Part shown: piece after piece, positions 12,387-61,540 of the stretch
How positions within the stretch are numbered: position 1 is the first letter of the stretch
Layout of the letters: the number at the start of each line of letters is the position of its first letter
DNA from: Mobula hypostoma
Lineage: Eukaryota
Assembly (NCBI RefSeq): GCF_963921235.1
Contig: NC_086097.1
Coordinates: 138,324,001 to 138,388,000 of the forward strand
DNA length: 64,000 nt
Direction: 5' to 3'
Program-made: the position numbers and the translations under genes
Notes under the pieces: model-generated
Told to the model about the DNA's origin: nothing
What the model saw: only the letters and a program-made list of their open reading frames with translations
The model's database searches: none

Positions 12387-12620
12387 AATCACAAGCAAGA
12401 GAAAATCTGCAGATGCAGGAAATCCAAGCAACATACACAAAATGCTGGAGGAACTCAGCAGGCCAGGCAGCATCTGTGGAAAAAAAAGTACAGTTGACGT
12501 TTCAGGCCAAGACCCTTTGGGCTTAGTCCTGCCAAGGGTCTCAATCCGAAATGTCGACTACTTTTTTCCAGAGGTGCTGCCTGGCATACTCAGATCCTCC
12601 AGCATTTTGTGTGTGTTGCT
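12387..12620. mobile_element. Short fold-back element made of two inverted PLE termini with hammerhead remnants, inserted in the Tc1 transposase
   Basis: The left arm (CACAAAATGCTGGAGGAACTCAGCAGGCCAGGCAGCATC..GACGTTTCAGGCCAAGACCCTT) is the approximate reverse complement of the right arm (AGTCCTGCCAAGGGTCTCAATCCGAAATGTCGACT..CCTCCAGCATTTTGTGTG). The centre is near 12523. Confidence 0.88.
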
Positions 12621-13024
12621 AAAAAGAAAAAAAATCATTGTTTGGCATGGCCAAGTCAGAGTCCAGACTTTAATCCAATTGAGATGCTGTGGCATGACCT
12701 GAAGACTGTTCATCCAAGATATACCAGAAATACTGATGAACTGAAACAGTTTTGTATGGAGGAATGATCTAAAATTCCTCCTCACTGTTGTTCAAATTTG
12801 GTCAGCAGCTACAGGAAACATTTGGTGAAGGTTATTACTGCTAAAGGAGGTTCTACCAGTTATTAAATACAAGTCTTCCCATACTTTCTTCCCCCCAGCC
12901 TGGAATGTGAATGATTAAACAATGTGTTCAATAAAGAAATGAAAATTACAATTGTTTGTGATTATTAGTTTAGGCAGGTTGTGTTTACCTATTATTGTAA
13001 CTTAGATGAAGATCAGACCACATT

Positions 13025-13365
13025 GTGGGCAAGTGCCTGGGTTGTGGCAAAGCTCTCTCTGGTCCACTCTGCAATGTTGTCTGCCCATTTCTTTGTCTCT
13101 CTGCCCCATTTTCTTTTCCCCATTCCCTGAAGAATGCTAGCTTTGCTGCTGCTTATGCATGGGAGGGGGGAGCTGTGAAGCAGGGGGCTATGGGGTTCTA
13201 ACATTTAACTGTCATTCATTCTTTGGGGCACTCCTCTGTTTTCATGATTGTTTGCGAAGAAAAAGAATTTCAGGATGTATATTGCAAACATTTCTCGAAC
13301 ATTAAGTGTACCCATTGAGAGTCCACTGGATCTTGTTATGTGGCCATGCCATCTCATTTTCCTCT
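13025..13365 (-). mobile_element. RTE-clade LINE C-terminal fragment, interrupted at about 13137-13319 by a plus-strand retroposon tail
   Basis: Peptides KRKMRWHGHITRSSGLS and ILQGMGKRKWGRETKKWADNIAEWT. The insert matches 44320-44500. Confidence 0.7.
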
Positions 13366-13439
13366 TCTCAAAAAAATTGAGATTTGGAGGATGCAATCAT
13401 CAATATCATTAGTTGTAATAATTTTGGTAGTCTTCTAAT

Positions 13440-13609
13440 TTGTTCTGCATTTCATTTAAAGACATAACTTTTACTCAGTCAAATGGTGGTTTGCCTTTTT
13501 TTTTAAAATACCTTTTACTTTTCCATGAAACTTTGGCTAATTGGGGCTGTCACTTAATCGGGACAAAATGTTCTGGTCCTGCTGTGTCCCAATTAACCAG
13601 AATCCACTG
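13440..13609. mobile_element. Right half of a Tigger/pogo-like MITE
   Basis: Ends CCCAATTAACCAGAATCCACTG|TA; same family as 38743-39172. Confidence 0.7.
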
Positions 13610-13689
13610 TACTTCTCTACACTGACCCTGTGACTGAAGTATTTGTGAAATATATTTGACAAGCTACATACTTTCTTAAAGGCTTTTCT

Positions 13690-14260
13690 CACTCTTCTAG
13701 GCTCTGGAGAATGCAGCCCCACTCTATTTAATCCCTCCTCATACGGTAAACTAGTCTAATTAATCTTCCTTCATTGGACTCCCTTTTTGACAAGTAGATC
13801 CCTTCCTGGGTAAGGAGACTAAAACTGCACACAATATTCCAGATGTAGTCTCACCAAGGCAATATACAAGTGTAGCAAAAAATCTTTACTCTCGTAACAA
13901 AGCCCTCCTTACAATCACGTCTAAATTCAGTGTCATTGAAATATGATATCTGGACCTTACAACCAAATATTTGGTACAAATTCTAAATAATTGGAGCCCC
14001 AAGCAGTAAACCTTGCCAACCTGAGATGGATCTATTTGTTTCCACTATTTGCTTTCTGTCCAATAACCATATATCAATCTACATCAGTACCTTACTCCCA
14101 AACAGCCTGAAAACCCAAATATACCAAATTCACCGACTCCTCCTTGATTATACACGACGTCCTCACAAAACCTGAACAGACAGTCAACTATGACTGTGAT
14201 TTCACAACTGTACACGGATCTTTATTTTTTCCCAAGGTGTTCTATTATGACACCCTTCAG
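13690..14260 (-). mobile_element. Old CR1 fragment
   Basis: AAAACTGCACACAATATTCCAGATGTAGTCTCACCAAGGC is the reverse complement of the ALVRxHLEYCVQF motif. Confidence 0.7.
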
Positions 14261-16839
14261 TACAGATTGGTTGACAGTAGTTTTAATCCTCTTTTTGTTT
14301 GGTAATGCCTTTAAATGCTGGGTCTTAAACTAAAACGTTGCCACTCCTTTGCTTCAACGGATGCTGCTTGACCTGCTGTTCTTCAGTTTGTTTATTGATC
14401 CAGATTCCAGAATCTGCAGAATGTGTCTCCAAAATCAGAATTAAGATGCAGATAAAATGTAACTGATTTCAGTGCAGAGTACAATACAAGGCAGATTATT
14501 GTCTAAAGTCGGCCAGGGCCCAGAGCAGAGACCAATTCCGGGTAGAGGCTTCAGTACCAGCACACCCTGAGGGGTTGGTATTCATGCCATGTCCCCTGTA
14601 TCAACAGATGTTCCAGGGATATCTTGTTTGGGTGGTTGGAGCAGACTTTGGGTGCTTGTTGTACAGTCTGTTGGGCATGCTGGACAGGCAGTATCACCAG
14701 GTAAGAACTGGCATTACTCTGGGTTTATCCTCAGTTTTGAAAGTATGTGTTGTTCATGGGCTGAATTAAGCACCTTAGTGCTTCAATTCATACTGTTTTT
14801 CGATGAGCGAGCAGTCTGTCCCTGCCACCTGGTCAAATTTAAATAAACCCAACGGTGGTTTCAAGGATGTACTATGTACAGAGGTACAAGGAATGGCATG
14901 AAGGCTAAAAGAGTAAGTAACGGAACAACCATCAATATGGTTTTTAATATTTTCCAAATGTCAGCTGGCCAATACTTGCCACCATTTCTTGATAAATCAG
15001 TGAACAATAACAAGCCAAGACCATCTGAACATAACTTCTAATAAGATTCCAAGGTCTAATCCTTGGAAATTAATTCACCCAGTCACTGGAGGGCGAGTTT
15101 TACCTACACATGCGTTCATTGGCCCTGGATAAACCTTCTCCAAGAAGCTGAAGCATGTGAGGTCACAGATAAAATAACAGCACTGGTAGCATCCAAAGTA
15201 AATCAATACAACTAAAGGGGAAAGGGTTCCTTCCTCCAAAAGGAGAACTATTCTTATGGTAACATAATTACTGCATTTGGAACTATTTATCTGTTTGTCC
15301 TGCTTTTGACTGAAACAGGACTAATTCTTGTGCTCTCAAAGGAGTATTTCTTCATACAAGGGTGCTTTTCAGTCATGTGCAGCAACAGATAATTAGTTCT
15401 AAAATACTGCAAGCTATTAGCAAGGTCGTACTTCAGGTATACAGGAAAAAGACATACTGGGTCCAAAAAAATCACTCAAGCATTCTGACTGAAGTCACTG
15501 TTGACCTCACAATGAATCCGAAAGAATGCAACACAATATTCTAATCACATGGCCTTTTTAGAAACAAACCACATAGTATTTCCCACTGCTTTGACCTTGA
15601 TTTATATGGTCTGATTTTGGAAAACACTGCAGTTAGAAACATGGCAGTTTCCAAACCTCTACTGCTACAAATGAAAACCAATGGTGAGCTTTTTAAAATC
15701 TGTTTACACACAGCTGCTGGCATTTCAGCTGTATAAAATATAATGGCTGGCCTATGGACATTTGCCCACTTCATGTGGATTCCAAGCAGTCTCGACAAAT
15801 ATGAATTTACACTATAATACAAAAAGATCTTTTATATAATACTATCAATTTTTACATCTCACTGCATCTTACACTTTAACAAAGATGAATATTTTGCCAA
15901 GACAAAACATGTGTCTGCTATTATTTTTCTAATATTGTGAAACACTTTAGCAAGCATGATATTTGAAACAAGTTTTTCATGGTGTGATATAATAATGTGA
16001 CAATACACCAACGGTAAAGACTTCCCAAGTAGATCAATAGGCCTGTCCATTTGAGGAGCCACACCAGCAAGACTAGTAAAGGTTCAAATCTGATGTGGGC
16101 TGACATAGCTTAACTATTTACAGATTGTTTGTAGGCTATTTGGAATATAAAGGCTGTGCAGATGTTGATTGGCGATCTGGTGCAGGACTGGATGGGGAGA
16201 AGGAAAAATCAAAGCTTCAGATCCTATTGAACATCCAGCAATCCTAATTGGAAAGGGTGCCTGAAGCATGAATGCATTGTCCAATGCCGGCATTTTCGGG
16301 AGCCACTCTCCAGAAAAGGACTCAAATTGGGGAAGGGTAGAACTAATGATTAAAACAAGCAAGCAAAATAGATCCAAACATTTAAAGGTTTTGATGCTCT
16401 TGGGTTTCTTCCAACTTCAAGAAAATCACCCATTTCGTCATGTGGCTGCCATAACATGGTGAACGGTGGACAGAGGAAAAGGGACAAGAACATGCAGTTC
16501 TCATTCATTTCAAAATTATATGTTCTCTGTTTTTATACAATTCATGGATTTGACATTAACAGCTAAAGGATCTTCTTTGGTGCAATGCTAATACCTTCCT
16601 TTCTATCCTCCAAGTCATCAATATGAATACTTTTTCCCCTATAACTACCCATTCCATTGAATTACCAAACCATGATTGCTTCCCACGTCATTGCTGTGAC
16701 CATTGCTCTACAACCTCTCTTTTTCTCATAAGGTTTAAATCAAAATATCTGCAAAATCCTCAAGTAAAGAGGCACAGCTAAGGTTGCACTTGCCTGAAGT
16801 AACAATTAATTTCATTTATAACTTATCTTTCAAATATAT

Positions 16840-17280
16840 TTCACAACCAGAGCTGAACACAATATTCCGAAGTGTAATCAGGGTTTTTTAGAGCTGCAGC
16901 ATTGCCTCACAGCTCTGGAACTCGATCCCCGACTAATGACCAAAACACCATACGTCTTCTTAACCACCCAATCAACTTGTGCTGAAACTGGGTGATCGAT
17001 GGACATGGAGCCCAAGAACTCTTTGTTCCTCCACACTGCTAAGAATCATACCAGAGGAATCCTATAGGGAGCCCAGCTCTGGATCTTGTCAGTGTCCTGT
17101 TGTAACCTATGACAATATTCTACACTACCAACTTTCCTGTCATCTGCGAAGTTACTAACTCACCCTTCCACGACCTCATCCAAGTCATTTATATATAATA
17201 AAATCACAAAGAGCTGAGTTCTCAGAACAGATCTCTGAGGAACTGCCAGACAGAAAATGGTCTATCTACAACTATCTTCT
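16840..17280 (-). mobile_element. Old CR1 RT fragment
   Basis: The minus strand contains degraded SVL..FIYINDLDE..SNFADD and LxYCVQLW motifs. Confidence 0.65.
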
Positions 17281-17285
17281 GCCTT

Positions 17286-18245
17286 CTGGATGATAATGTG
17301 GTAAATTGGATCAGCAAACTTGCTGATGATACAAAGATTGGAGGTGTAGTGGACGGTGAGAAAGGTTTTCAGAGCCTGCAGAGGGACTTGGACCAGTTGG
17401 AAAAATGGGCTGAAAAATGGCAGATGGAGTTTAATACAGACAAGTGTGAGGTATTGCACTTTGGAAGGACAAACCAAGGTAGAACATACAGGGTCAATGG
17501 TAAGGCACTGAGGAGTGCAGTAGAACAGAGGGATCTGGGAATACATATACAAAATTCCCTAAAAGTGGCATCATAGGAAGATAGGGTCGTAAAGAGAGCT
17601 TTTGGTACATTGGCCTTTATTAATCGAAGTATTGAGTATAAGAGCTGGAATGTTATGATGAGGTTGTATAAGGCATTGGTGAGGCTGAATCTGGAGCTTT
17701 GTGTTTAGTTTTGGTCACCAAATTACAGGGAGGATATTAATAAGGTTGAAAGAGTGCAGAGAAGGTTTACAAAGATGTTGTCTGGACTTGAGAAACTCAG
17801 TTACAGAGAAAGGTTGAATAGGTTAGGACTTTATTCCCTGGAGCGTAGAAGAAGGAGGGGAGATTTGATAGAGGTATATAAAATTATGATGGGTATAGAT
17901 AGAGTGAATGCAAGTAGGTTTTTTCCACAGAGGGAAGGGGAGAAAAAAAACCAGAGGACATGGGTTAAGGGTGAGGGGGGAAAAGTTTAAAGGGAACATT
18001 GGGGGGGGCTTCTTCACACAGAGAGTGGTGGAAATATGGAATGAACTGCCAGACGAGGTGGTAAATGCGGGTTCTTTTTTAACATTTAAGAATAAATTGG
18101 ACAGATACATGGATGGGAGGTGTATGGAGGGATATGGTCCGTGTGCAGGTCAGTGGGACTAGGCAGAAAATAGTTCAGCACAGCCAAGGAGGGCCAAAAG
18201 GCCTGTTTCTGTGCTGTAGTTTTTCTATGGTTTCTACGGTTTCTA
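17286..18245 (+). mobile_element. 5'-truncated CR1 LINE
   Basis: Peptides [30 protein letters not shown] and FFTQRVVEIWNELP; tail TTTCTATGGTTTCTACGGTTTCTA. Confidence 0.93.
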
Positions 18246-18564: not shown

Positions 18565-19366
18565 GGAGACAAAGAAGACTATAAATGCTGGAATCTAAAG
18601 CAAAAGACAAAATGCTGAAGGGCAGGCATCAGGTCAGGCAGCAGTGGTGGAGGGAAATTGATAATAATGTTTAAAATTTAATGTTGCAGCTATATAGGAC
18701 CCTGGTCAGACTCTACTTGGAGTACTGTGCTCAGTTCTGGTCGCCTCACTACAGGAAGGATGTGGAAACCATAGAAAGGGTGCAGAGGAGATTTACAAGC
18801 ACGTTGCCTGGATTGGGGAGCATGCCTTATGAAAACAGGTTGAGTGAACTCGGCTTTTTCTCCTTGGAGCGGCACAGGATAAGAGGGGAGCGACACAGGA
18901 TAAGAGGTGACCCAACAGAGGTGTATAAGATAATGAGAGGCATTGATCGTGTGGATTGTCAGAGGCTTTTTCCCCAGGGCTGAAATGGTTGTCACAAGAG
19001 GACACAGGTTTAAGGTGCTGGGCAGTAGGTACAGAGAAGATGTCAGGGGTAAGTTTTTTTTTACACCAAGAGTGGTGAGTGCGTGAAATGGGCTGCCGGC
19101 AACAGTGGTGGAGGTGGATACGATAGGGTCTTTTAAGAGACTTTTGGATAGGTACATGGAGCTTAGAAAAATAGAGGGCTATGGGTAACCATAGTAATTT
19201 CTAAGGTAGGGACATGTTCAGCACAACTTTGTGGGCCGAAGGGCCTGTATTGTGCTGTAGATTTTCTATATTTTGGACTAAGATCCCTCATTAGTTCTGA
19301 CACAGGGCTGCGACCTGAAATGTTGACTGTCCATTTTCCTCCATGGATGTTGCCTGACCTGCTGAT
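18565..19366. mobile_element. Old short PLE fold-back element split by a CR1 insertion
   Basis: Left arm 18565-18670 (ATGCTGGAATCT..CAGGTCAGGCAGCAGTGGTGGAGGGAAAT). The remainder and right arm lie at 19273-19366 (TTCTGACACAGGGCTGCGACCTGAAATGTTGACTGTCCATTTTCCTCCATGGATGTTGCCTGACCTG). Confidence 0.7.
18680..19272 (+). mobile_element. 5'-truncated CR1 LINE
   Basis: Peptide MLQLYRTLVRLYLEYCAQFWSPHYRKD; contains a 21-nt internal duplication (ERHRIRG twice); ends in a TTTTCTAT tail. Confidence 0.92.
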
Positions 19367-21125
19367 TTTTTATGGAAAAACTTCCATAAACTTTCCAGAA
19401 ACAGCGAAAAACACAGAAGAGAAAAGTTGGAGATGGGGTTATAGTGAACAAGGCAAGAAAACTTAGAGTTTTGCTTTAAGGCAGTGATGATGACAGTCTC
19501 AACGAATGAAGACAATAGCAGGGAGAGAGAACTGTTAGCAATGTCAAACAACCTAGATGCCAAGAAGACAAGCTGAAGAGTAAACAGATATATAAATCAA
19601 GTTGAGTCAGAAACTGAAATATCAAAGGAGAAAAAACTTGCGTCTTTTCATAAAAATATGATTTTCTAAAGAAAATGTCGAAGCTGACATATGATTGGAG
19701 CCTGAAACGCATTGAGTAGAAAGTGCTTAATTGAAATACAGGCAGTCCCCAGGTTTTGCAAGGATTCCATTTCTGAGAACTGCCCACAAACCTATTTCCC
19801 TATAAGTCAGAAACAGCCATTTTTTACATCTACCCCATACTTCAGTGGCTCCCAAAATTGGCGATATTGCCCCCTAGGGGCAATGGGAGTTTCTAAGGGG
19901 GCAGTGGGGGGGGGGGATGCGGTCGGTAGCAAGGGGGGCAGCAGAGGGATTACAGGCTGAATTTAAGAAATTACTTTTTAATCAGCATTTGATCCTCAGC
20001 ACCTCAGAATTGATTATAATGATCACATAACCTCATATTTTGCTAACCTATCATTCCCTTAGACTTTGCTCAAAGCGCTTAATAGTCGTTGAAAAGCAAT
20101 GTGATACCTCTGTATTTGGCATATCATGAGAAATCTGGACTGAAGAAATCGTGTTAATTCCGGGCCTGACCCGAGCTTTATTACTGTTATTGTTGTAGTA
20201 CAGTGCTGGAGTATGATTCCCATGCTCCAATCACACAGTGACACAAATCCTGTTAATGAGACTACGGCATTCAATGGGAAAAATTAGAATTTGGCCTTTC
20301 AAATGGTCTTGACTGCATTTCTTTAGCCAACAGCCCAACAGAGATATCACTATCCCAGTTTACGTACCAGGTTTTGCATGAGCCATGACGATGTCATAAC
20401 TTTCCCCTTTATTGATTGCAACGCTTGAGGTGATTGACTGTTGTCATTAATCTATAATGAAAATGGTAGAGGAAGACCGAACAAAAAAAGTGTAGACAGT
20501 ATAGTGTGGAGTATCTGAAAAGTGGATTTATACCAACGTCAAGCAACAAATGACAGTCAATGTCTGTTGAGTGAAAAAAGTTTTTTTTTCCCAAATGAAG
20601 CACTGAAACCATCCATGCTCCTTGAACATTTGAAGAGAATATATCTGATAAAGCAAACAAAAAGTTGGCTTATTTTCAGTCACTTTGTGAAAACTTTCAA
20701 AAATTGAAAACACTTGAAAACATGTCTTCTAGCACTTTATAGCAAAACAAGTGATGGTTTGTGTGCTTCACACATTTCATTCCCCATTGCTAAATCTGGA
20801 AAGCTCCGTACAATTGGAGAAGAACCAATTCTGTCAGCAGTAAAGGATGTTCTGAGTACAGTTTTGCTTAAGTCACCAAATCAAATAACTTACACAATTC
20901 CACTCAGCGACAACTCTGTTCAAAGACAAATAATGAAATGTCTGAGAATGTGGAAGATTCCTTGTGCAAAATACTTAAGACAACAGAATTTGCCCTGCAG
21001 TTGGATGAGCCAACTTTTCCAGGCGATAAATCTTTGCTTCACGGTTATGTTCACTTCATAAAAGATGAAAGCATGGTTCAAGGGTGGTTATTTGCAAGGG
21101 GACTAGAAACAGATAAGAAGGGAGA

Positions 21126-22252
21126 AACACAAACAACAGGAATTCTGCAGATGCTGGAAATTCAAGCAACACACATCAAAGTTGCTGGTGAACGCAGCAG
21201 GCCAGGCAGCATCTCTAGGAAGAGGTACAGTCGACGTTTCAGGCCGAGACGCTTCGTCAGAACTAACTGAAGGAAGAGTTAGTAAGAGATTTGAAAGTGG
21301 GAGGGGGAGGGGAGATCCAAAATGATAGGAGGAGGGGGAGGGATGGAGCCAAGAGCTGGGCAGGTGATTGGCAAAGGGGATATGAGAGGATCATAGGACA
21401 GGAGGTCTGGGGAGAAAGACGGGGGGGGGGAACCAGAGGATGGGCAAGGGGTATAGTCAGAGGGACAGAGGGAGAAAAAGGAGAGTGAGAGAAAGAATGT
21501 GTGTATAAAAATAAATAACAGATGGGGTACGAGGGGGAGGTGGGGCATTAGCGGAAGTTAGAGAAGTCGATGTTCACGCCATCAGGTTGGAGGCTACCCA
21601 GACGAAATATAAAGTGTTGTTCCTCCAACCTGAGTGTGGCTTCATCTTTACAGTAGAGGAGGCCGTGGATAGACATGTCAGAATGGGAATGGGATGTGGA
21701 ATTAAAATGTGTGGCCACTGGGAGATCCCGCTTTCTCTGGCGGACAGAGTGTAGGTGTTCAGCAAAGCGGTCTCCCAGTCTGCGTCGGGTCTCGCCAATA
21801 TATAGAAGGCCACATCGGGAGCACCGGACGCAGTATATCACCCCAGCCGACTCACAGGTGAAGTGTCGTCTCACCTGGAAGGACTGTTTGGGGCCCTGAA
21901 TGGTGGTAAGGGAGGAAGTGTAAGGGCATGTGTAGCACTTGTTCCGCTTACAAGGATAAGTGCCAGGAGGGAGATCAGTGGGGGGGAGGGGGTGATGGAG
22001 GGGACGAATGGACAAGAGAGTTGCGTAGGGAACGATCCCTGCGGAAAGCAGAGGGTGGAGAGTGAAAGATGTGCTTAGTGGTGGGATCCTGTTGGAGGTG
22101 GTGGAAGTTACGGACAATTATATGTTGGACCCGGAGGCTGGTGGGGTGGTAGATGAGGACCAGGGGAGGATGGAGTGAGAGCAGATGTACGTGAAACAGG
22201 GGAGATGCGTTTGAGGCAGAGTTGATAGTGGAGGAAGCTCCTTTCTTTAAAA
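21126..22252 (-). mobile_element. 5'-truncated Penelope-like element with a well-preserved GIY-YIG domain, 3' UTR and hammerhead motif; 8-bp TSD
   Basis: ORF 21548-22117 contains CKRNKCYTC..FTCESAGVIYCVRCSRCGLLYIGETRRRLGDRFAEH..SLQPDGVNIDF. AAGGGAGA is present on both flanks (21118-21125 and 22253-22260). Confidence 0.93.
21229..21264 (-). ncRNA. Minimal type I hammerhead ribozyme motif (core intact, stem II mismatch)
   Basis: Minus strand reads AGTT-CTGACGA-AGCGTCTCGGCCT-GAAA-CG-TC-GACT. Confidence 0.7.
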
Positions 22253-27651: not shown

Positions 27652-28417
27652 CAGTGGTCCCCAACTACCGGGCCGCGGACCGGTACCGGGCTGCAAAGCA
27701 TGTGCTACGAGGAACCGATATGATTTGGCGATATGATACGATATGAGTCAGCTGCACCTTTCCTCATTCTCTGTCACGCACTGTTGAATTGAATATAGGG
27801 TTGCCAACTGTCCCGTATTAGCCGGGACATCCCATGTATTGCGCTAAATTGGTTTGTCCCATATGGGACCACCCTTGTCCCATACTTCCCCTGCTAAGGT
27901 ACAGTGTTTCTATGAAACCATTCGTAAGCTGAAACGGCATAAAGCAAAGAAGCAATTATCATTAATTTATATGGGAAAAATTTTTGAGCGCTCCCAGACC
28001 CAAAAAATAACCTACCAAATCATACCAAATAACACATAAAACTAACACTAACATATAGTAAAAGCAGGAATGATATGATAAATACACAGCCTATATAAAG
28101 TAGAAATAATGTATGTACAGTGTAGTTTCACTTAACAGAATCGGGAAGATTAAGACAAAACCGATTTGTAGAGAAAAAAAAATCGGCACATACACGCATG
28201 CGCACACAGGTGCCCGCGCAAGGCTTCATGGTCATGGTAGTCTTTCTCGGGGTAAACACAAGTGGCCCGTATTTGACTGCTACTTTTGACCCTTATTTGT
28301 GAATGAGAAAGTTGGCAACCCTACTTGAACCACCTCCCCCCCCCCCAGTCGGCCGGTCTGTAGGAATATTGTCAATATTAAACCAGTCCGTGGTGCAAAA
28401 AAGGTTGGGGACCCCTG
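27652..28417. mobile_element. Non-autonomous hAT (Charlie/Buster-type) MITE with a perfect 8-bp TSD
   Basis: TIRs CAGTGGTCCCCAAC and GTTGGGGACCCCTG match at 13 of 14 positions. TSD ATCTACTG at 27644-27651 and 28418-28425 has the central TA typical of Buster elements. Confidence 0.95.
27796..28323. mobile_element. Second hAT-like MITE nested inside the first
   Basis: Perfect TIRs TAGGGTTGCCAACT and AGTTGGCAACCCTA. The flanks ATTGAATA and CTTGAACC look like a decayed 8-bp TSD. Confidence 0.8.
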
Positions 28418-29149
28418 ATCTACTGTATCCAGTGCTCCCGGTATGGCTTCCTGCATATCGATGAGATCCAATGTAGATTGGGAGACCGCTTGGTTGAGCA
28501 TCTATGCTCTGTCTGCCAGAAACAGTAGGATCTCCTGGTGACCATGCATTTCAATTCAACTTCCCATTCCCATTCCAACATTCTTTCCAAGGTGTCCTCT
28601 ACTGTCACGATAAGGCCACACTCAGGTTGAAGGAACAATACCTTGTATTCCATCTGAGTAGCTTCCAATCTGTTGGCAAGAACATCAATTTCACGAACTT
28701 CTGGTAACTGCCCCCCCCCCCCCCGTCACCATTCCCCATTCCTATTTTCCTCTCTCACTTTACCTACCCGTCACCTCCCTCTGGTGCTCCTCCTCCTTGC
28801 CTTTCTTCCATGGCCTTCTGTCCTCTCGTATCAGATTCCCCCTTCTCCAGCCCTTTAATCTCTTTTACCAATCGACTTCTTAGCTCTTCACTTCAACCCT
28901 CCCCTTCCTGGTTTCACCTATCACCTTCTATCTTCTACTTCTTCCTCCCACCTCCCCACCTTCTTACTCTGACTTCTCATCTTTATTTTCCAGTCTTCAT
29001 GAAGGGTCTTAGCCCGAAATGTCAGCTGTTTACTGTTTTTCATGGATGCTGTCAAGCCTGCTGAGTTCCTCCATCATTTTTTGTGCGTGCTTTGCTTTCA
29101 AGCATCTGCAGATTTTCTTGTTTGTGAGCCCATATTAACCATTAAATAA

Positions 29150-29609: not shown

Positions 29610-31700
29610 AGAATAGTTAACCTGATGTCAGTACTGGGGAAAATGTGACACTGCATTATTAAAGAAGTGGCCATACAGCACTTACAAAGTAACAACAGAA
29701 TTGGGCAGAGTCAAAATGGATTTATGAAAAGGAATTCAAACACCAAATCTGTTCAGAGTCTGTAACTAGTAAATAGATGAGGGCAAATCAGTTGATGTTG
29801 TATATTTGAACTTTCAGAAGGCCACTGATAAGGTATAGCATAAGAGATTAAAGCATTAAGAGCAATATCCTAGCTTGGAAGGAAGACTTTAATGGAAAGA
29901 GTGTAGAATATGAATAAACTGATCATTTTTGAGACAGGAAGATAAGACTGGTGGGATAGTAGAAAGACAGTGAATAATCAAGAGAAAATCTGCAGATGCT
30001 GGAAATCTGAGCAACACACACAAAATGCTGGAGGAACTCAGCAGGCCAGACAGCATCTATGGAAAAAAGTACAGTTGATGTTTCAGGCCGAAACTCTTCG
30101 GCAGGACTGGGAAAAAAGAGCTGAGAAGTATATTTAAAAGGTGGGGGAAGGGAGAGAGAAACACCAGGTGACAGGTGAAATCTGGAGGGGAGGGATGAAG
30201 TAAAAATCTAGGAAGTTGATTGGTGAAACAGACAGAAGGCCATGAAAGAAAGAAAAAGGGGTGGGGGGGAAGAGCACCAGAGGGAGGTGATGGGTGGCAA
30301 GAAGATAAGGTGAGAGAGGGAAAAGGGGATGGGAAATGGTGAAGAGGAGGGTGTGGGGGGCTCCCAGAGGCCACCCATTTCAATTCCATTTCCCATCCCA
30401 ATATGTCCATCCACGGCCTCCTCCATTGTTGTGATGAAGCCACACTCAGGTTGGAGGAACACCACCTTACATTCCGTTTGGGTAGCCTCCAACCTGATGG
30501 CATGAACATCAATTTCTCAAACTTCCAGTAATGCCAACCCCCACCCCCCTTACCATTTCCCATCCCCTTTTTCCTCTCTCACTTTATCTCCTTGCCACCC
30601 ATCACCTCCCCTTCTGGTGCTCTTCCCCCCCCCCCGCCATACCTTTTTTTCTTTCTTCCATGGCCTTCTGTCTCTTTCACCAATCAACTTACCAGCTTTT
30701 TACTTCATCCCCTCCCCCTCCAGGTTTCACCCATCGCCTGGTGTTACTCTCTCCCCTCCCCCCACCTTTTATATCTACTCAGCTTTCTTTCTCCAGTCCT
30801 GAAGGGTTTTGCCTCGAAACGTCACCTGTACTTTTTTCCATAAATGCTGCCTGGCCTGCTGAGTTCCTCCAGCATTTTGAAAGATGGTGATTTGGATGAA
30901 GAGATCAAGTGCAACACATCTAAATATTCTGGGGGGGGGGGTAGCATGAATGGTAAAAAGGTGCATGGGTACACTTCATGGGGATTCAGACAGGTTTGTT
31001 GAATAGTCAAGGACGTGGCATTTGAAACACTTTGTGCAAAAATTGTGAGGATATCCAGTAAAAAATAGAAAAGTAGTCTAAGTGAGAGATTTTAAGGCAT
31101 TGGTGCTCAGGGGTACCTAGCTGTCCTTGTACATGAACTACTGAAAGTTCATATGCAGGTTCAGCATACCAACTGCACAACAAAAGGTATGTTGGCCCGT
31201 AGTTTTTAAGCAGACTTGACTACAAGAGTAGAGCAGTCCTGCTCCAATTACATGGAGCAAACTTGAAATACTGTGTCTTGTTCTGCTTGATGAAAGGAGA
31301 TATTTGCAATTAGCAGTGTGTAGTGAGGGTTCAGAAGATTAACTTCTAGGATGGCAGGTTTGACACAAGGAGAGCTTATGCAGACCAGACCCACACTCTC
31401 AAGAACAGAAGAGAATGAGAAGTGATCCCATTGAACCAAGTAATATTTTTACATGGCTTGACAAGGTAGATGCAGGAATGATGTTTCCCCCTACAAAAAT
31501 GGATCACAATCTCAAAATAAGCATTCGGCCATTCAAGGGAGAAAGGAAAGGAATTTGTTCATCCAAAACTACAGCAAATCTTTCGAATTCTCTACCCAAG
31601 CAGAAAGCTCAGTCACTGATTACATTCACAACAAAGATTAGTAGAATTGTAAATATTAAGAGAATAAAGAAATATGGGGTTAATGCAGGAATTTGGGGTT
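29610..31700 (+). mobile_element. Old degraded CR1 LINE, host of the fold-back at 29976-30879
   Basis: Remnants of QSQNGFMK, VDVVYLNFQKA.DKV and ANLSNSLP motifs. Confidence 0.7.
29976..30879. mobile_element. PLE fold-back element (about 0.9 kb) with two inverted 3' ends and degenerate hammerheads
   Basis: The left arm 29976-30360 (minus, 3' UTR) is inverted relative to 30535-30879. The spacer 30361-30535 encodes the GIY-YIG C-terminus on the plus strand. Hammerhead remnants lie at about 30073-30108 (minus, CTGCCGA..GAAACATC) and 30795-30827 (plus, 3-nt deletion). Flanks AAAGACAGTGA and AAAGATGGTGA resemble a decayed TSD. Confidence 0.9.
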
Positions 31701-35929: not shown

Positions 35930-36445
35930 TGTGAAGCAAAATAACAAACTGCTGAAAGAACACTGAACGTCAGACAGCATCTGTGAAGGCAAAATCAATG
36001 GTCAACATTTCGAGTCACGACCGGCATCGGGACTGAGAGTGCAGAGGGAGGTTAGCTGGTGGGTGATAAGATGGAAACATAAGAAATGAAGAAACGGTAG
36101 ACAGGTAGAGGCAGGTAAAGGAGAAGAGGAAGATTAGAGACAGATGGGGGTAAGTGATAGATTGAAATAGATGAGGGAAGGATGATGGGCAGGTGGAACC
36201 AAAAGGGCAAAGTGCAAATTAAGCAAATGAGGAAGAAATCCAGGAAGATTGGTATGACTGAAATGAGCTGATGGAACGATGTGATGGAGGATAATTTGTG
36301 TTGACAATGAGACATGGGGAAGAATGGGAACTGTGAATAAAGGGAGGGAGACAATGGGTGAACTAGTAGGAACGTGAAAGGAACACAAAGTGTGTGAGCT
36401 TTCTGAATTTGGAAAATGTTTGATAATGAACAGCTGATCTGACCT
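35930..36445 (-). mobile_element. Old PLE 3' end with a degenerate hammerhead (about 36000-36035)
   Basis: Minus strand reads AGTC-CCGATGC-CGGTCGTGACTC-GAAA-TG-TT-GACC. The purine-rich body on the plus strand resembles 21300-21550. Confidence 0.6.
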
Positions 36446-52755: not shown

Positions 52756-54087
52756 AGTTTGTGGTTGAACCCATCAGGGGAAACACAATACTGGATTGTG
52801 TATTATGCAATGAACCAGATTTGATTAGGGGGCTTAAGGCAAAGGAACCTTGAAGAGGCAGTGATCATAATAAGACGGAATTCACCTCGCAGTTTGAGAA
52901 GCTAAAACTGGATGCATCAGTATTACAGCAGCCTAAAGAGAATTACAGAAGAATGAGAGGGGAGCTGGCCAATGTTGATTAGAAGGGGACACTGGCAGGG
53001 AGGATGACAGAACAGCAATGGCTGCAGCAACTGGGAGCAATTTGAAAGGCGCAGGAAAAATACATCCCTAAGATGAAGTTGTATTTTAAAGGGAGGATGA
53101 CGCAACCTTGTCTGACAACTGAAGTCAAAAATCAGCATAAAAGCAAAAGAGAGGGTATACAAAATAGCAAAAATTAGTGAGAAAGTAGAGGATTAGGAAT
53201 CTTTTATAAACCAGAGGGCAACTAAAAAAATCATAAAGAGAGAAAAGATGAAATATGAAAGTAAGGTCGCCAAAAAAATAGAAGAGAATACAAAAAACCT
53301 CTTGTATAAAGAGTGAAAGAGAGACAAGAGTGGATATCAGACTGCTGGAAAATGATGCTGGTGTGGTAGTGATGGGGGACAAATGTAATAAGTATTGTGC
53401 ATTAGCCTTTGCTGTGGAAGACATGAGTAGAATGGCAGCAGTGCAAGACTGTCGGGAGGCAGAAGTGGCTGTAGTTGCTGTTACCAAGGAGAAGGTGCTC
53501 GGGAAACTGAAAAGTCTGAAGACCTGGACCAGGTGGATTACACCAGATATTGAAAGAGATAGGGAGCGCGAAGTGCAGAATCAAATATCACTGTGATGAT
53601 TGTACGCTCTAGTATCAATTGTTTGGCGACAATAAAGTATTAAGTAAATAAGAGATTGCGGAGGCATTATTAATGATCTTTCAAAATCACTAGATTCTGG
53701 AATGGTTCCAGAGGACTGGAAAATTGCAAATGTCATTCCACTCCTTAAGTAGGGAAGGAGGCAGAAGTGGTGAAATTATAGGCCAGTTAGCCTGACTTCA
53801 GTGGTTGGAAGGATGCTGGAATCTATTTTTACGGACGAGATTTCAGGGTACTTGGAGGCACATGGCAAAATAGGCCAAAGTCACCATGCCTTCCTTGGGG
53901 GAAATCTTGCCCGACAAATTTGTTGGAATTCTTTGAGGAGATAACAGATATGATAGACAAAGTAGAGTCAGTGGATATCGCTTATTTAGATTTTCAGAAA
54001 GTCTTTAACAAGGTGTTGCACATGAAACTGCTTAACAAGATAAAAGCTGATTCTTTTACAGGAAAGATACAAGCATGGATAGAACTC

Positions 54088-55153
54088 AAACACAAGGAAA
54101 TCTGCAGATGCTGGAATTTCAAGCAACACACATAAAAGTTGCTGGTGAACGCAGCATGTCAGGCAGCATCTCTAGGAAGAGGTACAGTCGACGTTTCAGG
54201 CCGAGACCCTTCATCAGGACTAACTGAAAGAGCAGCTAGTAAGAGATTTGAAAGTGGGCGGGGGAGGGGGATATCCAAAATGATAGGAGAAGACAGGAGG
54301 GGGAGGGATGGAGCCAAGAACTGGACAGTTGATTGGCAAAAGGGATATGACAGGATCATGGGACAGGACGCCTAGGGAGAAAGAAAAGGGGGAGGGGGGA
54401 AAACCAGAGGATTGGCAAGGGGTATAGTGAGGGGGACAGAGGGAGAAAGAAGAGAGAGAGAGAAAAAGAATGTGTGTATATAAATAAATAACGGATGGGG
54501 TACGAGGGGGAGGTGGGGCATTAGCGAAAGTTTGAGAAGTCAATGTTCATGCCATCAGGTTGGAGGCTACCCAGACGGAATATAAGGTGTTGTTCCTCTA
54601 ACCTGAGTGTGGCTTCATCTTTACAGTAGAGGCGACCGTTCTGATATGTCTATCCATGGCCTCCTCTACTGTAAAGATGAAGCCACACTCAGGTTGGAGG
54701 AACAACACCTTATATTCCCTCTGGGTAGCCTCCAACCTGATGGCATGAACATTGACTTCTCAAACTTCCGCTAATACCCCACCTCCCCCTCGTACCCCAT
54801 CCGTTATTTATTTACTTATATACACACATTCTTTTCCTCTCTCTCCTTTTTCTCCCACTGTCCCTCTCACTATACCCCTTGCCCATCCTCTGGGCTTCCC
54901 CCTCCCCCTTTTCTTTCTCCCTAGGCCTCCTGTCCCATGATCCTCTCGTATCCCTTTTGCCAATCAACTGTCCAGCTCTTGGCTCCATCCCTCCCCCTCC
55001 TGTCTTCTCCTATCATTTTGGATCTCTCCCTCCCCCTCCCACTTTCAAATCTCTTACTAACTCTTCCTTCAGTTAGTCCTGACGAAGGGTCGACTGTACC
55101 TCTTCCTAGAGATGCTGCCTGGCCTGCTGCGTTCACCAGCAACTTTTATGTGT
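54088..55153. mobile_element. Young PLE fold-back element (about 1.07 kb) with near-perfect inverted arms of about 500 bp
   Basis: The left arm is 54088-54632 (minus) and the right arm 54639-55153 (plus), joined by the filler CGACCG. The host sequence CATGGATAGAA is present on both sides. It belongs to the same subfamily as 21126-22252. Confidence 0.95.
54186..54221 (-). ncRNA. Minimal type I hammerhead ribozyme motif with an intact core
   Basis: Minus strand reads AGTC-CTGATGA-AGGGTCTCGGCCT-GAAA-CG-TC^GACT. Stem I is AGUC/GACU, stem II is AGG/CCU, and a palindromic ACGU replaces stem III. Confidence 0.8.
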
Positions 55154-56269
55154 ATAACATGGATAGAAGATTGGATATAACATAGATATAACATGGATAG
55201 AAGATTGGCTGATTGGCAGGAGGCAAAGAGTGGGAATAAAGGGGGCCTTTCTAGTTGGCTCCCTGTGACTAGTGGTGCACACTGCTCCCTGTGCAGTGGT
55301 TGGTGTTGGGACTACTTCTTTTCACATTATACATCAATGATTTAGATGAAGGAATTAAAGACTTTGTGGTCAGTTTTGCAGATGATACGAACATAGTTGG
55401 AGGGGTAGGTAGTGTGAGGAAGCAGGGTGTCTACAGAAGGACATAAATGGGCAAAGTGACAGATGAAAAATAATGTAGGGAAGTGTATGGTCATGCACGT
55501 CTGTAGAAGGAAAAAGGCGTGGACTATTTTCTAAACGGGAAGAAAATTGAAAGATCAGAGATGTAAAGGGACTTGGGAGTCCTTGTGCAGGATTCCTAAA
55601 AGTGTTAAGGAAGGAAAATGCAATGTTAGCGTTCCTTTCAAGAGGTCTAGAATATAAAAGCAAGGACATAATGCTGAAGCTTTATAAGCCATTGGTCAGA
55701 TGGCACTTGGAATATTGTGAAAAGTTTTGGGCCCCTTATCTATGAAAAGATGTGCTAGCATTGGAGAGAGTTCAGAGGTTTGCAAGAATTATCCCAGGAA
55801 GGAAAGGGTTAACATATGAGATGTGTTTGATGACCTGTACTTGATGGGGTTTAGAAGAATTGGGGCAGGGGGATCTCATTGAAACCAATTGGATACAGAA
55901 AGACCTGGATAGAGTGGATGTGGAGAGGATGCTTCCGAAAGTGGGGAAGTCTTAAGACCAGAGGCCACAGCCTCAGAATAGAGGGACATCCATTTAGAAC
56001 AGAGATGAGAAAAAAAAATTAGGCAGCTGTGCAGGCTAAATCATTGGGTACATTTAAGGCAGAGTTTGATGGGTTCTTGATTAGTCAGGGTGTGAAAGGT
56101 TACAGTGAGAAGCCCGAAGAATGGGGTTGAAAGATAATATATCAGCCATGATGTAATGGCAGAGTAGACTCAATGGGCTGAATGCCCTAATCCCATTCTT
56201 ATGTTTTATAGTTTTTCACATCTATATTTCAGCCAGTCAGTATTGTTAAGATACTTACTGAACCAATTA

Positions 56270-57350
56270 GAAGAATTGGTGATGTTCACTCCTAGGACTT
56301 TGTAGATCTCAACCTCAGCACTGTTGATGTGGACAGAAACATATGCACCAACCCCTTTCTGAAGACAATGACCAACTCTTGTTTTGCTGACATTGAGGGA
56401 AAGGTTGTCGTCATGACAGCACATCACTAAATGCCATCTCCTTCCTATACTCAGCCTCATTATTTGAAATTTGGCCCAAAATGGTGATATCACCTGCAAA
56501 TTTGTAGATGGAGTTAAAAGCAGAATCTACAATGCAGAATTATCAAAGGTCAGAAGGCTGAGGAGACAACCTTCTGGAGCACTGGTGTTGAGAATAATTG
56601 TGGTGGAGGTGCTGCTGTCGATCCTTACCGATTATAGTCTGTTGAATCAGAAGTCAAGGATTTAGTTGGATTTCCATGGTCCAGAGTTTGGTTATGTGTT
56701 TGCCTGGAATTTTCATATTGAAGTCAGTGCTGTAGTCAAAAGGCAATGGTTTAATATGGGAATCTTTACTCTCCAAATGCTCCAAAAATTAGCGTAGGGC
56801 TAGGGAGATGCATCCACTGTAGACCTGTTTCAGCAGTAAGCATATTATAATGTTTTCAGGTTGGGTGGAAGGCTGGAGTTGATGCATGCCACAAGTAGCC
56901 TCTCAAAGCACCTCACAATGATAGAAAACAGAGCCAGTGGGAAGTATTCATTAAGGCACATTATCTTGTTTTTTCTTGGGTACTGGGATGAAAGTGGTCT
57001 TTTTAAAGCAGGAGGAAACCAGAGCCTGAAGTAGAGACAGGGTAAAAATGTCTGCAAGTACTCCTACCAGCTGTTCTGTGCAGGATCTGAAGACGTAGCC
57101 AGGGACAGCATTCAGGCCTGATGTTTCCCACGGGTTTACCCTGCAGACATCTGATCTTACAAACCCAACAGAGACTCTGGATTCAGGTGCACTGGAGACT
57201 ATCAGGGTGAGTGGTGACATTCACATTCCCTTCTGTTCAAAACATGCACAGAATGTATTAAACTCATCAGAGAGGGTGTGCTATAGTGGGCAATGCTGGC
57301 CATCTTCATTTCGTAATCAGTGATAGTATGCAAGCCCTGCCACAGCTGAT
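56270..57350 (-). mobile_element. Degraded Rex1/Babar LINE ORF
   Basis: Peptides RSCTEQLVGVLADIF..FKKTTFIPVPKK, IVRCFERLL and CCHDDNLSLNVSKT. Confidence 0.85.
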
Positions 57351-57672
57351 GTCTGCGGAAGAATGACAACTGCACATTTTCCTCCATAAATGCTGAGTTC
57401 ATGTGTTGATCCAGATTTCCAGCACCTGCAGTCTCTCGTGTCTCTGAGGGGCAAGGTTTTTTTTTTAAATATGTAGAGTGGTTGTTATCTGGAACAGGCA
57501 CTTTAATAGCAAAAGCACAGGAGGTTATGATCCTAAGGTGAGCAGATGGAATTAATATTGATGGGGAGAAAGGTTTGCATGGATGTAGTGGGCTCAAAGG
57601 CCCATTTCTACGCTGCAACACTACGGGATTTGGGAATGTTGTACTATTGGAGTTGATGTTTAGAACCAAGTA

Positions 57673-57911
57673 CACTCACTGGCCACTTTACCAGGTACAT
57701 CATTTCATTAGTGCAAATATCTAATCAGCCAACATGTGGCATCAACTCAAAGCAAAAATGCATGCGGACTTGGTCAAGAGATTCAGTTGACGTGCAGAAC
57801 AAACATGAGAAAGAAGAAATGTGACCATGTGACTTTGATCGTGGAATGCTTATTGCTGCCAGATGGGGTCATTTGAGTACAAGATGTATTTAGTAAGGTG
57901 GCTACTGACTG
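57673..57911. mobile_element. Tc1-derived MITE
   Basis: TA|CACTCACTGGCCACTTTACCAGGTACATC ... GATGTATTTAGTAAGGTGGCTACTGACTG|TA, imperfect TIRs. Confidence 0.75.
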
Positions 57912-58246
57912 TATATATCCTTTCAGGTGGATGTGAAGGATTTCACAATATATCTGATATATTTTTAAGAGCAGGGAATTCTCCCCAGTGTTCTGAACAA
58001 TACGCATCTCTCTGCTTAAGTTAACAAAACAGCTCAAACGTCACTTATTGCTGTCTGCAAGATCCATCTGTGCACTGGCTGACTGCAGAGATTCCCACAT
58101 TTCAAAAGTCACCACACAGCAAGCGTTTAACTGGCTCTGGATATCCTGAAGTCATGAAAGACATATAGAAATCAAAGCCCTTTGTTTTAATAAAATCGTA
58201 TTACTTTACCCTTTGAGGTTTATGGCGTATTTTGCTACAAATTGTG

Positions 58247-59687
58247 TTCTATTAAAAAAGGAGGGAGAGAGAAACCGGGGAATTATAGGCCGGTTAGCCT
58301 AACGTCGGTGGTGGGGAAACTGCTGGAGTCAGTTATCAAGGATGTGATAACAGCACATTTGGAAAGCGGTGAAATGATCGGACAAAGTCAGCATGGATTT
58401 GTGAAAGGAAAATCATGTCTGACGAATCTCATAGAATTTTTTGAGGATGTAACTAGTAGAGTGGATAGGGGAGAACCAGTGGATGTGGTATATTTGGATT
58501 TTCAAAAGGCTTTTGACAAGGTCCCACATAGGAGATTAGTGTGCAAACTTAAAGCACACGGTATTGGGGGTAAGGTATTGGTGTGGGTGGAGAATTGGTT
58601 AGCAGACAGGAAGCAAAGAGTGGGACTAAACGGGACCTTTTCAGAATGGCAGGCGGTGACTAGTGGGGTACCGCAAGGCTCAGTGCTGGGACCCCAGTTG
58701 TTTACAATATATATTAATGACTTGGATGAGGGAATTAAATGCAGCATCTCCAAGTTTGCGGATGACACGAAGCTGGGTGGCAGTGTTAGCAGTGAGGAGG
58801 ATGCTAAGAGGATGCAGGGTGACTTGGATAGGTTGGGTGAGTGGGCAAACTCATGGCAGATGCAATTTAATGTGGATAAATGTGAAGTTATCCACTTTGG
58901 TGGCAAAAATAGGAAAACAGATTATTATCTGAATGGTGGCCGATTAGGAAAAGGGGAGGTGCAACGAGACCTGGGTGTCATTATACACCAGTCATTGAAA
59001 GTGGGCATGCAGGTACAGCAGGCGGTGAAAAAGGCGAACGGTATGCTGGCATTTATAGCGAGAGGATTCGAGTACAGGAGCAGGGAGGTACTACTGCAGT
59101 TGTACAAGGCCTTGGTGAGACCACACCTGGAGTATTGTGTGCAGTTTTGGTCCCCTAATCTGAGGAAAGACATCTTTGCCATAGAGGGAGTACAAAGAAG
59201 GTTCACCAGATTGATTCCTGGGATGGCAGGTCTTTCATATGAAGAAAGACTGGATGAACTGGGCTTGTACTCGTTGGAATTTAGAAGATTGAGGGGGGAT
59301 CTGATTGAAACGTATAAGATCCTAAAGGGATTGGACAGGCTAGATGCAGGAAGATTGTTCCCGATGTTGGGGAGGTCTAGAACGAGGGGTCACAGTTTGA
59401 GGATAGAGGGGAAGCCTTTTAGGACCGAGGTTAGGAAAAACTTCTTCACACAGAGAGTGGTGAATCTGTGGAATTCTCTGCCACAGCAAACTGTTGAGGC
59501 CAGTTCATTAGCTATGTTTAAAAGGAAGTTAGATATGGCCCTTGTGGCTACAGGGGTCAGGGGGTATGGAGGGAAGGCTGGGTTCTGAGTTGGATGATCA
59601 GACATGATCATAATAAATGGCGGTGCAGGCTCGAAGGGCCGAATGGCCTACTCCTGCACCTATTTTCTATGTTTCTATGTTTCTATA
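58247..59687 (+). mobile_element. Young 5'-truncated CR1 LINE with an uninterrupted RT domain and C-terminus (448-codon ORF 58242-59588)
   Basis: Motifs [53 protein letters not shown] and RPHLEYCVQFW with no stops. 3' hairpin region followed by (TTTCTATG)n. No endonuclease domain and no true start codon. Confidence 0.97.
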
Positions 59688-59689
59688 AC

Positions 59690-61005
59690 ATCAAACACCA
59701 GAAGACATGCTTTTAAGGCTGGGTGGGAGGGGGGAGAAGCTTAAAGGCAACGTGAGAGCCAAGTTTTCCTTGTGAGAGTGGCAAGTGTCTACAATGGCCA
59801 GATCAGTAATGGAAACAGGCATTTTAGTGGAGTTTTAGAGGCTTTTAGACACATGAATATGGAGAGAATGGAGATAGATGGATCATACACAGGAGGAGGA
59901 TATAGAGCATAAATTAGCGTCACGACTGGAACATGGTGGGCCAGGTGACCTTCCAGTACTGTAGTGATTTATATTCTATAATAACAGAACATTATTGTCT
60001 TAAAATCAGACCAAAACATTTATATTGAATAAGACAATGCCAAAATAAAACAAATATTTTGTGCCAATCTCCCTGCCTAATGAAGGAAATACTTGAAACA
60101 GAGGGACAGTAATGAAAATCCAAAAGATTGCTTCATAGAATTAGGAGGTGTGCCCATCAAGGAGAGTTTAAGCAGAATGAATGCATAGTTCAGTGAATTT
60201 AGAAGAATCAGTGCATATCTCATTGGAACATACAAAACTCCAAGAAGATACAATAGGATAGGCGCAGGCTTATTATGTGTCCCCCTTGCTGAAGCATTAA
60301 AAATCTGTGGTCATTCAGGACTGAGATAAGAAATCACTTCACCTAGAGCACGGCGCATCTGTAGAATTCTCTATTCGTGCATGTTTTTAAGGCTCAGTAT
60401 AGTGAGTGGAGTCAGAGAAATAGTGAGTGATAGATATGGCAAGAATCAAGGGATACAGGGTTAATGCAAGAAAGTAATTTTGAAGATCGGTCAGATTCTC
60501 GATGAAGAGTATAGCAGGAGTGTAGGGACTGAATTGTCCACAGAGGCAATGTACAAATTTCCAGCTTCTGTCATGAACACAGACTTTGAGCCTATACTCG
60601 CTGGGGTTTAGAAGAATGAGGGAGTGATCTCTTTGAAACCTACCGAATATTGAAAGGCCTATATAGTGGCTATGGAGAGGATGCTTCAAATAGGAGCTTC
60701 TAGGATCAGAGGGCTCAGCCTTGGAATACAAGGATGTCCCTTTAGAACAGAGATGAGGAGTAATTCCATGAGCCAGAGGGTGGTGAATCTGTGGAATTCA
60801 TTGTCGCAGACTTCCGTGGAGGCCAAGTCATCAGGTATATTTAAAGTGGAGGTTGATAGGTTCTTGATTAGTAACAATAAAGGTTTTGGAGAGCAGACAG
60901 GTGAATGAGGGTTGAGAGGTAAAAATAAATCACCCATGATGGAATGGTAGAACAATCCTGATGGTCTGAATAGTCTAATTCTGTTCTTGTATCCTATGGT
61001 CTTAT
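59690..61005 (+). mobile_element. Stack of three old CR1 3' fragments
   Basis: Repeated degraded FRRMR..LIETY and QRVVNLWNSL motifs at about 59690-59980, 60120-60560 and 60585-61005. Confidence 0.7.
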
Positions 61006-61344
61006 TAACTAAACATGTTTAGATAATAAACAGATCGACTTTCAAACCAATATGACCGATAATGCATGTCAGTTATCAGGTTGACACTTGCAAGTGTTAT
61101 AAGGTATAAAAGTGTTATTAAAATAATATAATAGTTGGGTAATCCTCTCTATGATAACTTGATGTGAGGCAGTTTCTCAGCAGACACTGACTGAAAAGTT
61201 TGTTTCTTTAAGTTTCTCTTCAAACTTGCTTCAGAATGTTGGCATTTTAACGGACAGAGCAAGCCATACCCAGCATCCTTCACAAACACCGAACTACTGA
61301 GTGAACAATGCACCCTGTACCTTAAACACTAAAGGTACAGGCTG

Positions 61345-61540
61345 CATCTAAAGCAATCAACAAGATACTGGAGGAACTCAAAGGGCCAGGCAGCATTTGT
61401 GGAGGGAAAGGAACAGTTAACATTTTGGGTCAAGACATTCATCTTTGGTACAGATTAAGGGTGTAGAGGCAAAACACTGACTGTCCATTTCCCTCCATAG
61501 AAGCTGCCTAGCCCAGTGAGATCGTCCACCATCTAGTCTG
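61345..61540. mobile_element. Old short PLE fold-back element (about 200 bp)
   Basis: The left arm CTGGAGGAACTCAAAGGGCCAGGCAGCATTTGTGGAGGGAAAGGAACAGT is inverted in the right arm ACTGTCCATTTCCCTCCATAGAAGCTGCCTAGCCCAGTGAGATCGTCCA. Eroded hammerhead remnants meet at the centre. Confidence 0.75.

Follow-up and report, generated by a model that had tools for sequence, protein, structure and literature searches.

The 64,000-nucleotide window of the Mobula hypostoma genome analyzed here (contig NC_086097.1, positions 138,324,001 to 138,388,000) contains five fold-back structures, each built from two inverted copies of the 3′ end of a Penelope-like element (PLE), a minus-strand copy followed by a plus-strand copy. 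Each is probably a single insertion of an endonuclease-positive (EN+) PLE, in which two 5′-truncated copies of the 3′ end lie head-to-head within one target site duplication (TSD), both nicked strands of the target having primed reverse transcription. A sequence-only reading of the window had offered two explanations, a habitual two-ended integration product of the PLE lineage and a self-propagating palindromic ribozyme retroposon resembling a miniature inverted-repeat transposable element (MITE); the former is supported by the TSDs, one-sided tails, variable junctions and same-subtype arms. All five structures were found at the positions claimed, and their arm pairs could be aligned. Scanned with a profile of the final ~130 nt of the element, the window yields 17 element ends; those that form minus-then-plus pairs no more than 1 kb apart make up exactly five, with gaps of 4, 629, 675, 840 and 3 nt. 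The five are unlike in age (arm complementarity 73–94%) and in terminal subtype, as had been proposed.

Several features show that each fold-back represents one integration event, another point on which the sequence-only reading was right. First, a single TSD of 10–18 bp (mode 13–15) encloses both arms. The window and individual genomic loci sampled elsewhere (designated by L-numbers) together yield 121 minus/plus neighbors no more than 3.6 kb apart; 116 of these could be mapped to a common reference, and 62 pass a filter that requires a TSD of at least 9 and places the junction gap between −20 and 45. (In this set of 62 one segmental duplicate is counted twice, and one arm at the tail threshold was reclassified as tail-less by alignment.) A TSD of at least 9 is present in 24 of 50 random pairs, as against 1% with mismatched flanks. 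Second, the terminal tail of ~37 nt is present on one arm only in 60 of the 62 pairs, on neither in two and on both in none. The same asymmetry is seen in the unbiased random set, with one tail in 20 of 21 pairs (P=1e-5 versus independent tails), and in a looser set of all 37 close pairs, where 30 have one tail, seven have none and none has two (P=0.001). Third, the ends of the two arms are offset by a median of 37 nt (range 31–48), and microhomology between element end and TSD is 1.11 and 1.41 nt by a strict count, compared with 0.35 and 0.47 nt after shuffling (44 of 80 loci resolved for both measures). Targeting of microsatellites was not seen among the TSDs listed. One fold-back occurs twice with the same TSD, 31 kb apart and inverted (L217 and L218, G000:C12 at 197.00 and 197.03 Mb), and reflects a segmental duplication.

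Pairs of this kind are abundant. In a random sample of 26 blocks, each 50 kb long and located at round coordinates elsewhere in the genome (1.3 Mb in all), there are 262 element ends and none in the reversed control. Neighboring ends within 200 nt of each other comprise 37 head-to-head, one tail-to-tail and 13 same-strand pairs, and random placement yields 3.6 pairs at this distance, with a maximum of 11 in 2000 draws; inverted pairs are thus far commoner than the random adjacency of solo copies that the sequence-only reading had named as its counter-case. Between 201 and 1000 nt the figures are 16 head-to-head versus 9 tail-to-tail, and beyond 1 kb the excess is gone. Inspection by hand of the first 100 of 51,877 exact hammerhead matches gives ten head-to-head and no tail-to-tail neighbors within 1 kb, and an inverted partner accompanies 8 of 10 long copies that had been picked by endonuclease match, not by inversion. 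Extrapolated genome-wide, the excess corresponds to roughly 115,000 fold-backs among 700,000 ends, as a rough figure. The number of pairs per 50-kb block ranges from 0 to 6, and a 64-kb stretch is expected to hold 2.6 (P=0.12 for the five seen), so that five fold-backs in this window are unremarkable. Among the sampled loci, a 10.8-kb minisatellite array with a 29-nt unit and ~370 copies (L096-L100, G000:C45 ~60,014,100-60,024,200) carries twelve same-strand tail-less PLE ends, apparently amplified along with the array. A near full-length copy (L043:5910-8784) has its inverted partner 2.9 kb away, and a 99-nt exact direct repeat of the element flanks the spacer, which is either a later insertion or captured DNA.

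The five fold-backs in the window differ in the lengths of their arms and in their hosts. The first (12387..12620) joins a tailed minus arm at 12387-12519, which has lost the 5′ part of its hammerhead, to a tail-less plus arm at 12523-12620; its inverted arms (12427-12485/12562-12620) are 88% complementary, its TSD (12373-12383/12620-12630) matches at 10 of 11 positions, and it sits in a Tc1-like transposase fragment (DDE_3, E=1.4e-06 for 12627-12764). The second, an old one (18567..19368), has a tailed minus arm at 18567-18671 that continues at 19271-19294 and a plus arm at ~19295-19368, with inverted arms (18627-18661/19330-19364) that are 77% complementary; a convincing TSD was not found for it (8 of 9 match). 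It is interrupted at 18672..19270 by a later, plus-strand insertion. The sequence-only reading had it split by a CR1, and the split is confirmed; the frame of the insert resembles the C-terminus of an open reading frame (ORF) 2, presumably of CR1 type, and the insert is taken as the 3′ end of such an ORF. The third (29976..30879) consists of a tailed minus arm at 29976-~30368 and a longer tail-less plus arm at ~30369-30879 (inverted arms 30021-30368/30545-30879, 81–89% complementary), and its TSD-like flanks (29962-29973/30879-30890) match at 10 of 12 positions by eye, with a script score of only 7. The fourth (54087..55153) is formed by a tailed minus arm at 54087-54639 and a tail-less plus arm at 54636-55153 with a 15-nt deletion within its hammerhead; both arms extend into the GIY-YIG C-terminus, the inverted arms (54128-54637/54658-55153) are 88–94% complementary, and the TSD (54072-54084/55156-55168) matches at 12 of 13 positions. 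Its host is a reverse transcriptase (RT) fragment (RVT_1, a weak match at E=0.078), presumably of CR1. Beside its tail-less end, at 55154-55225, a 20-nt target stretch that includes the TSD is present twice, with filler, which suggests slippage at the second priming site. The fifth and oldest (61350..61534) has arms that both stop short of the full tail, 73% complementarity (61360-61436/61461-61537) and a TSD (61339-61349/61535-61545) with 10 of 11 matches. TSD-like flanks had been proposed for three of the five; we count four (those at 12387, 29976 by eye, 54088 and 61345), with 10–12 matching bases.

The remaining ends in the window are solo copies. One 5′-truncated copy of the same family lies on the minus strand at 21125..22167 and retains a Cys linker and GIY-YIG frame (21548-22117), 3′ untranslated region (UTR), hammerhead core and tail; another, of an older subfamily, is tailed and lies on the plus strand at 28416..29128. 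The profile places five more old solo ends, absent from the sequence-only reading, at 9257-9340, 14320-14420, 35934-36037, 57362-57431 and 61792-61857.

The longer copies identify the family. At locus L041 an 822-amino-acid open frame, in a copy with a 17-bp TSD, contains RVT_1 (E=3.7e-05; 24 bits, under the curated cut-off of 29.6), a CX4CxxC linker and GIY-YIG; the GIY-YIG of the window fragment is over its cut-off (E=8.4e-05). An RT followed by a C-terminal GIY-YIG endonuclease (EN) in one ORF is the arrangement that defines EN+ PLEs, and the protein relatives have both domains. The best-matching named relatives are elasmobranch proteins, of Chiloscyllium, Hypanus and Rhincodon (64–72%), as suits a cartilaginous-fish host; the matches returned included no named reference PLE protein. 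A protein search of the genome returned 222,205 first-look candidates, of which 150 were scored. The linker sequence, CKRNKCYTC, fits the CX2-5CxxC pattern of the Neptune clade, which is common to Nematis; the available text of PMC8557442 uses this zinc-finger-like linker between RT and EN to define Neptune/Nematis. By this definition the family, an EN+ PLE, would be of Neptune/Nematis type. Judged from copies that extend further 5′, the full unit is ~3.5 kb and consists of hammerhead, tail, ~640 nt, ORF, 3′ UTR, hammerhead and tail. At four loci (L122, L128, L133 and L143) the 5′ region and ORF are immediately preceded by a 3′-end copy, which is the pseudo-long terminal repeat (pLTR), or partial tandem, organization of PLEs. 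Two young copies, L041:4224-6692 and L143:816-3172, are 97–99% alike and have long open frames, on which grounds the family may be recently active; their reading frame seems to start in or right after the tail.

The junctions between arms are variable, ranging in position from within the hammerhead to 2.3 kb upstream. Queries made from the junctions of the fourth and first fold-backs match only their own loci at 100%, the next full-span matches being 86% and 85% (scoring covered 40 candidates out of 759 and 142, respectively). One junction within the hammerhead, GTC-nn-GAC, the commonest observed, is shared: it occurs in 3 of 37 random short pairs and has 560 exact copies in the genome, about 1% of the 51,877 exact intact hammerhead motifs. 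Among the first 30 of these 560 loci, 14 have the tail on the left, 15 on the right and one on neither side, mostly with a TSD of their own, and the subtype differs between loci while agreeing between arms (24 of 30 compared; 1.12 versus 2.00 mismatches, with 0 of 20,000 shuffles as low). A second palindromic junction, GTCGAC, is found at 70 more loci and in three subtypes. Because the tail lies on either side and several subtypes are involved, a shared junction recurs and does not replicate: it marks a point at which joining has happened repeatedly and not a single lineage. Four public DNA read runs (organisms A–D) were compared with 53700-55600 in search of an empty site; repeat copies swamp the matches, no piece spans both ends, and the many arm-to-arm joints, with sides of only 20–26 nt, give at most a weak hint of varied junctions.

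Four other explanations have to be weighed against a two-primer integration, and two of them concern whether the arms arrived together and whether the palindrome itself moves. Two separate insertions side by side, whether coincidental or because an existing copy was targeted, are the least probable. Element ends are dense, some distant minus/plus neighbors lacking a TSD are probably chance pairs, and the arms are occasionally discordant (L232 and L048); however, the orientation bias of 37 to 1, the strict complementarity of tails and the agreement in subtype are contrary to it, and a single TSD spanning both arms, in L232 and L048 as well, refutes it for the TSD-flanked majority. We consider it very improbable that a short fold-back is transcribed and mobilized as a unit in trans, in the manner of a MITE. 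Such a unit would suit the one exact junction common to 560 loci and the shortness of paired ends (28 of 33 paired family-A ends are 200 nt or less, versus 23 of 38 unpaired, p=0.034), and non-autonomous PLE derivatives exist, at least as described in the available text on retrozymes (bioRxiv 10.64898/2026.07.22.740005) and MRC1 (PMC8557442). Yet those 560 loci are a small fraction of the hammerheads, and the first 30 vary in tail side and subtype where a MITE would have a fixed structure with shared junction and polarity. Neither the first nor the fourth fold-back has an identical junction among the candidates scored, and the 16 best look-alikes of one short outside junction all differ, save one segmentally duplicated pair with the same TSD. 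Of 53 random pairs, only 4 have two intact hammerhead cores. The predicted probability of stem II in the hairpin does not exceed 0.001, and the core has survived about as often in solo ends (39 of 156) as in paired ones (23 of 106, p=0.56). The self-propagating palindromic ribozyme retroposon of the sequence-only reading is accordingly not supported; a small replicating subset may exist among the other 530 shared-junction loci.

The other two explanations accept a single insertion and differ in how the second arm is made, and here the agreement and the lengths of the arms are informative. Subtype discordance between arms is 0.10, compared with 0.43 after shuffling (83 of 84 pairs), and three locus-private variants are common to both arms (24 loci), which indicates that the arms derive from one source. 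L232 and L048 (L048:2923-4474) are exceptions, with arms of different subtype under one TSD (5 and 4 of 8 diagnostic columns), and may go back to an occasional insertion from two templates or to conversion at a later time. In 28 of 60 pairs it is the tail-less arm that retains more 5′ sequence, with a lead of as much as ~1.3 kb; in 19 it is the tailed arm (10 of these stem from a set selected by junction query), and in 13 the two are within 5 nt. In the random and ORF-selected sets, the latter not unbiased, the tail-less arm is longer in 20 of 26 decided pairs (p=0.009), a bias that a tail-primed polymerase trailing on the same RNA would be expected to produce. Fold-back self-priming, proposed in the available part of PMC3846280, would have the antisense RNA or first cDNA snap back at a small palindrome and copy itself. 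It explains why arms agree in subtype and private variants and why junctions recur on the small hammerhead palindromes GTC-nn-GAC and GTCGAC; but no self-copy can reach beyond its template, and the non-nested pairs with longer tail-less arms therefore refute it as the sole route. The asymmetric 560-copy junction with its tail on either side and the discordant arms of L232 and L048 tell in the same direction, and we regard self-priming as unlikely. Somewhat less probable still is two-primer integration with two templates as the rule, supplied by a pair of RNAs of common source or by the terminal repeats at the 5′ and 3′ ends of one tandem transcript, instead of a single RNA stretch being copied twice. 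The discordant arms and the partial tandems in the family speak for it, whereas tail-less arms of up to 2.3 kb (L042) would demand nearly dimeric sources and the bias towards longer tail-less arms fits a tail-primed polymerase that trails on one RNA.

The preferred reading, two-primer integration, can be set out as a series of steps, all inferred from genomic products. The element protein would nick both target strands about 14 bp apart; one 3′-hydroxyl would prime at the end of the RNA tail and the other at its start, aided by 1–2 nt of pairing. The two cDNAs would stop independently, often near the hammerhead, and short microhomology, or a few bases added without template, would serve to join their 3′ ends. 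Both would usually be copied from the same RNA or the same source locus, and occasionally from two different ones, and the product would be a dead passenger. The available text of PMC11167929 describes an anole PLE protein that in vitro cuts and extends both strands, with two RNA start sites bounding the tail and a predicted dimer; it draws no link there between two-site priming and inverted copies, and the later steps are given as unvalidated. On balance we lean towards a specific, symmetric form of twin priming, in which a dimeric RT-endonuclease makes a ~14-bp staggered cut and uses two sites ~37 nt apart on one RNA, with preferred stopping and joining on the hammerhead palindromes. If true, this would account for the inverted pLTR and the one-sided tail together.

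A number of observations weigh against this interpretation. The anole protein is from a Poseidon-clade element. Tail-less solo ends are numerous (84 of 156) and lack a detectable tailed partner, so the second cDNA would often need to be lost; of the unpaired tail-less ends listed, just two or three suggest a tiny inverted tail hidden beside them. Complex insertions can break the one-tail rule, since the inverted arms 5′ of long copies in L133, L136 and L138 carry the tail or run through it. Many junctions contain extra bases, up to 40 nt, which imply template jumps for which the simple model makes no provision. Arms of one subtype could also be due to gene conversion, or to repair of the hairpin, once the insertion was in place, and in four pairs with long arms there is no shared private variant, although the partner ranks near the top in a comparison set that included arm duplicates. 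Finally, the nested minority may have a fold-back origin. Short fold-backs at L238, at L252 and in pair p45 of block B20 (L171-L175) carry additional tandem copies of the hammerhead region past the junction, resembling template jumps; at L238 three or more hammerhead starts follow one another.

The hammerheads are likely inherited parts of the terminus in a dead passenger. The sequence-only reading placed one motif on each strand, intact or decayed; the motif is indeed present, but the core is intact in only one of the ten arms, on the minus strand at 54186..54221, and several arms are truncated inside it. By motif pattern (CUGANGA..GAAA..UH) this core is of the minimal type I, as the termini of intact copies also appear to be. 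It is predicted to be buried, fully paired, in the fold-back hairpin. The control is imperfect, in that the same core taken alone is also predicted to be unfolded (stem II 0.004–0.024); for the L014 arm, stem II is 0.69 alone and 0.000 in the hairpin. An Rfam scan of the window at E≤10 gave no match to a hammerhead family and 12 weak unrelated matches. A pile-up of truncations at the predicted cleavage site, 103 nt from the end, was not found (1 of 33 paired arms), and the clustering of arm lengths at 121–138 nt is artefactual in part, as the reference diverges upstream of the motif.

The structure itself is not new, an outcome that the sequence-only reading had named as one that would count against it: it is already described for PLEs generally in the available text of PMC8557442, PMC3846280 and PMC4209133. 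In the first of these, an inverted 5′-truncated copy and a one-sided 30–40 bp tail are typical of PLEs and their formation is called unresolved. A literature search, thin on subscription journals, found no paper on fold-back stubs in cartilaginous fish, none on twin priming in PLEs and none on palindromic miniature derivatives. What is added here is a set of mechanistic statistics and not the structure, which is ordinary for PLEs. Strictly one-sided tails, non-nested arms and same-source arms, measured in this genome, separate the models for the formation of the inverted copy and tail. The genome should also hold about 10^5 long palindromes, perfect at birth, which could give rise to double-stranded RNA and to artefacts in assembly and repeat annotation.

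The closest known system is the canonical EN+ PLE unit, as given in the available text of PMC8557442 and, for Pen2a_Av, of PMC3846280, which shares the inverted 5′-truncated head-to-head copy, the tail at one end, the single TSD, the terminal hammerhead and the partial tandems. The elements here differ in being mostly tiny stubs without an ORF, in about 10^5 copies and with arms that are often not nested, and their TSD mode of 13–15 bp compares with 8–10 bp in the available part of the rotifer paper. They resemble the Neptune/Nematis PLEs of PMC8557442, as far as its available text describes them, in a C-terminal GIY-YIG with CCHH-type residues and in the CX2-5CxxC linker. The Schistosoma PLEs of PMC4209133 have the same motif type, with a short palindromic stem III, and the same pairing on opposite strands, as dual minimal hammerheads 100–700 bp apart; in contrast to the present analysis, the available text notes these pairs without analysis of junction, tail or TSD. 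Non-LTR retrozymes are likewise short, non-coding, hammerhead-bearing and PLE-derived, and the available text of the retrozyme preprint, which includes one chondrichthyan, describes head-to-tail tandems with an intact ribozyme in each unit, whereas the present pairs are head-to-head with mostly broken cores. With about 10^5 natural reaction products, the genome offers material for testing twin priming. In LINE-1 twin priming, both target nicks prime cDNA synthesis and joining through microhomology leaves an inversion inside one TSD. The fold-backs are similar in that two primed cDNAs would be joined within one TSD, but in LINE-1 the inverted and direct parts do not overlap, while here both arms copy the same terminus, from starts ~37 nt apart.

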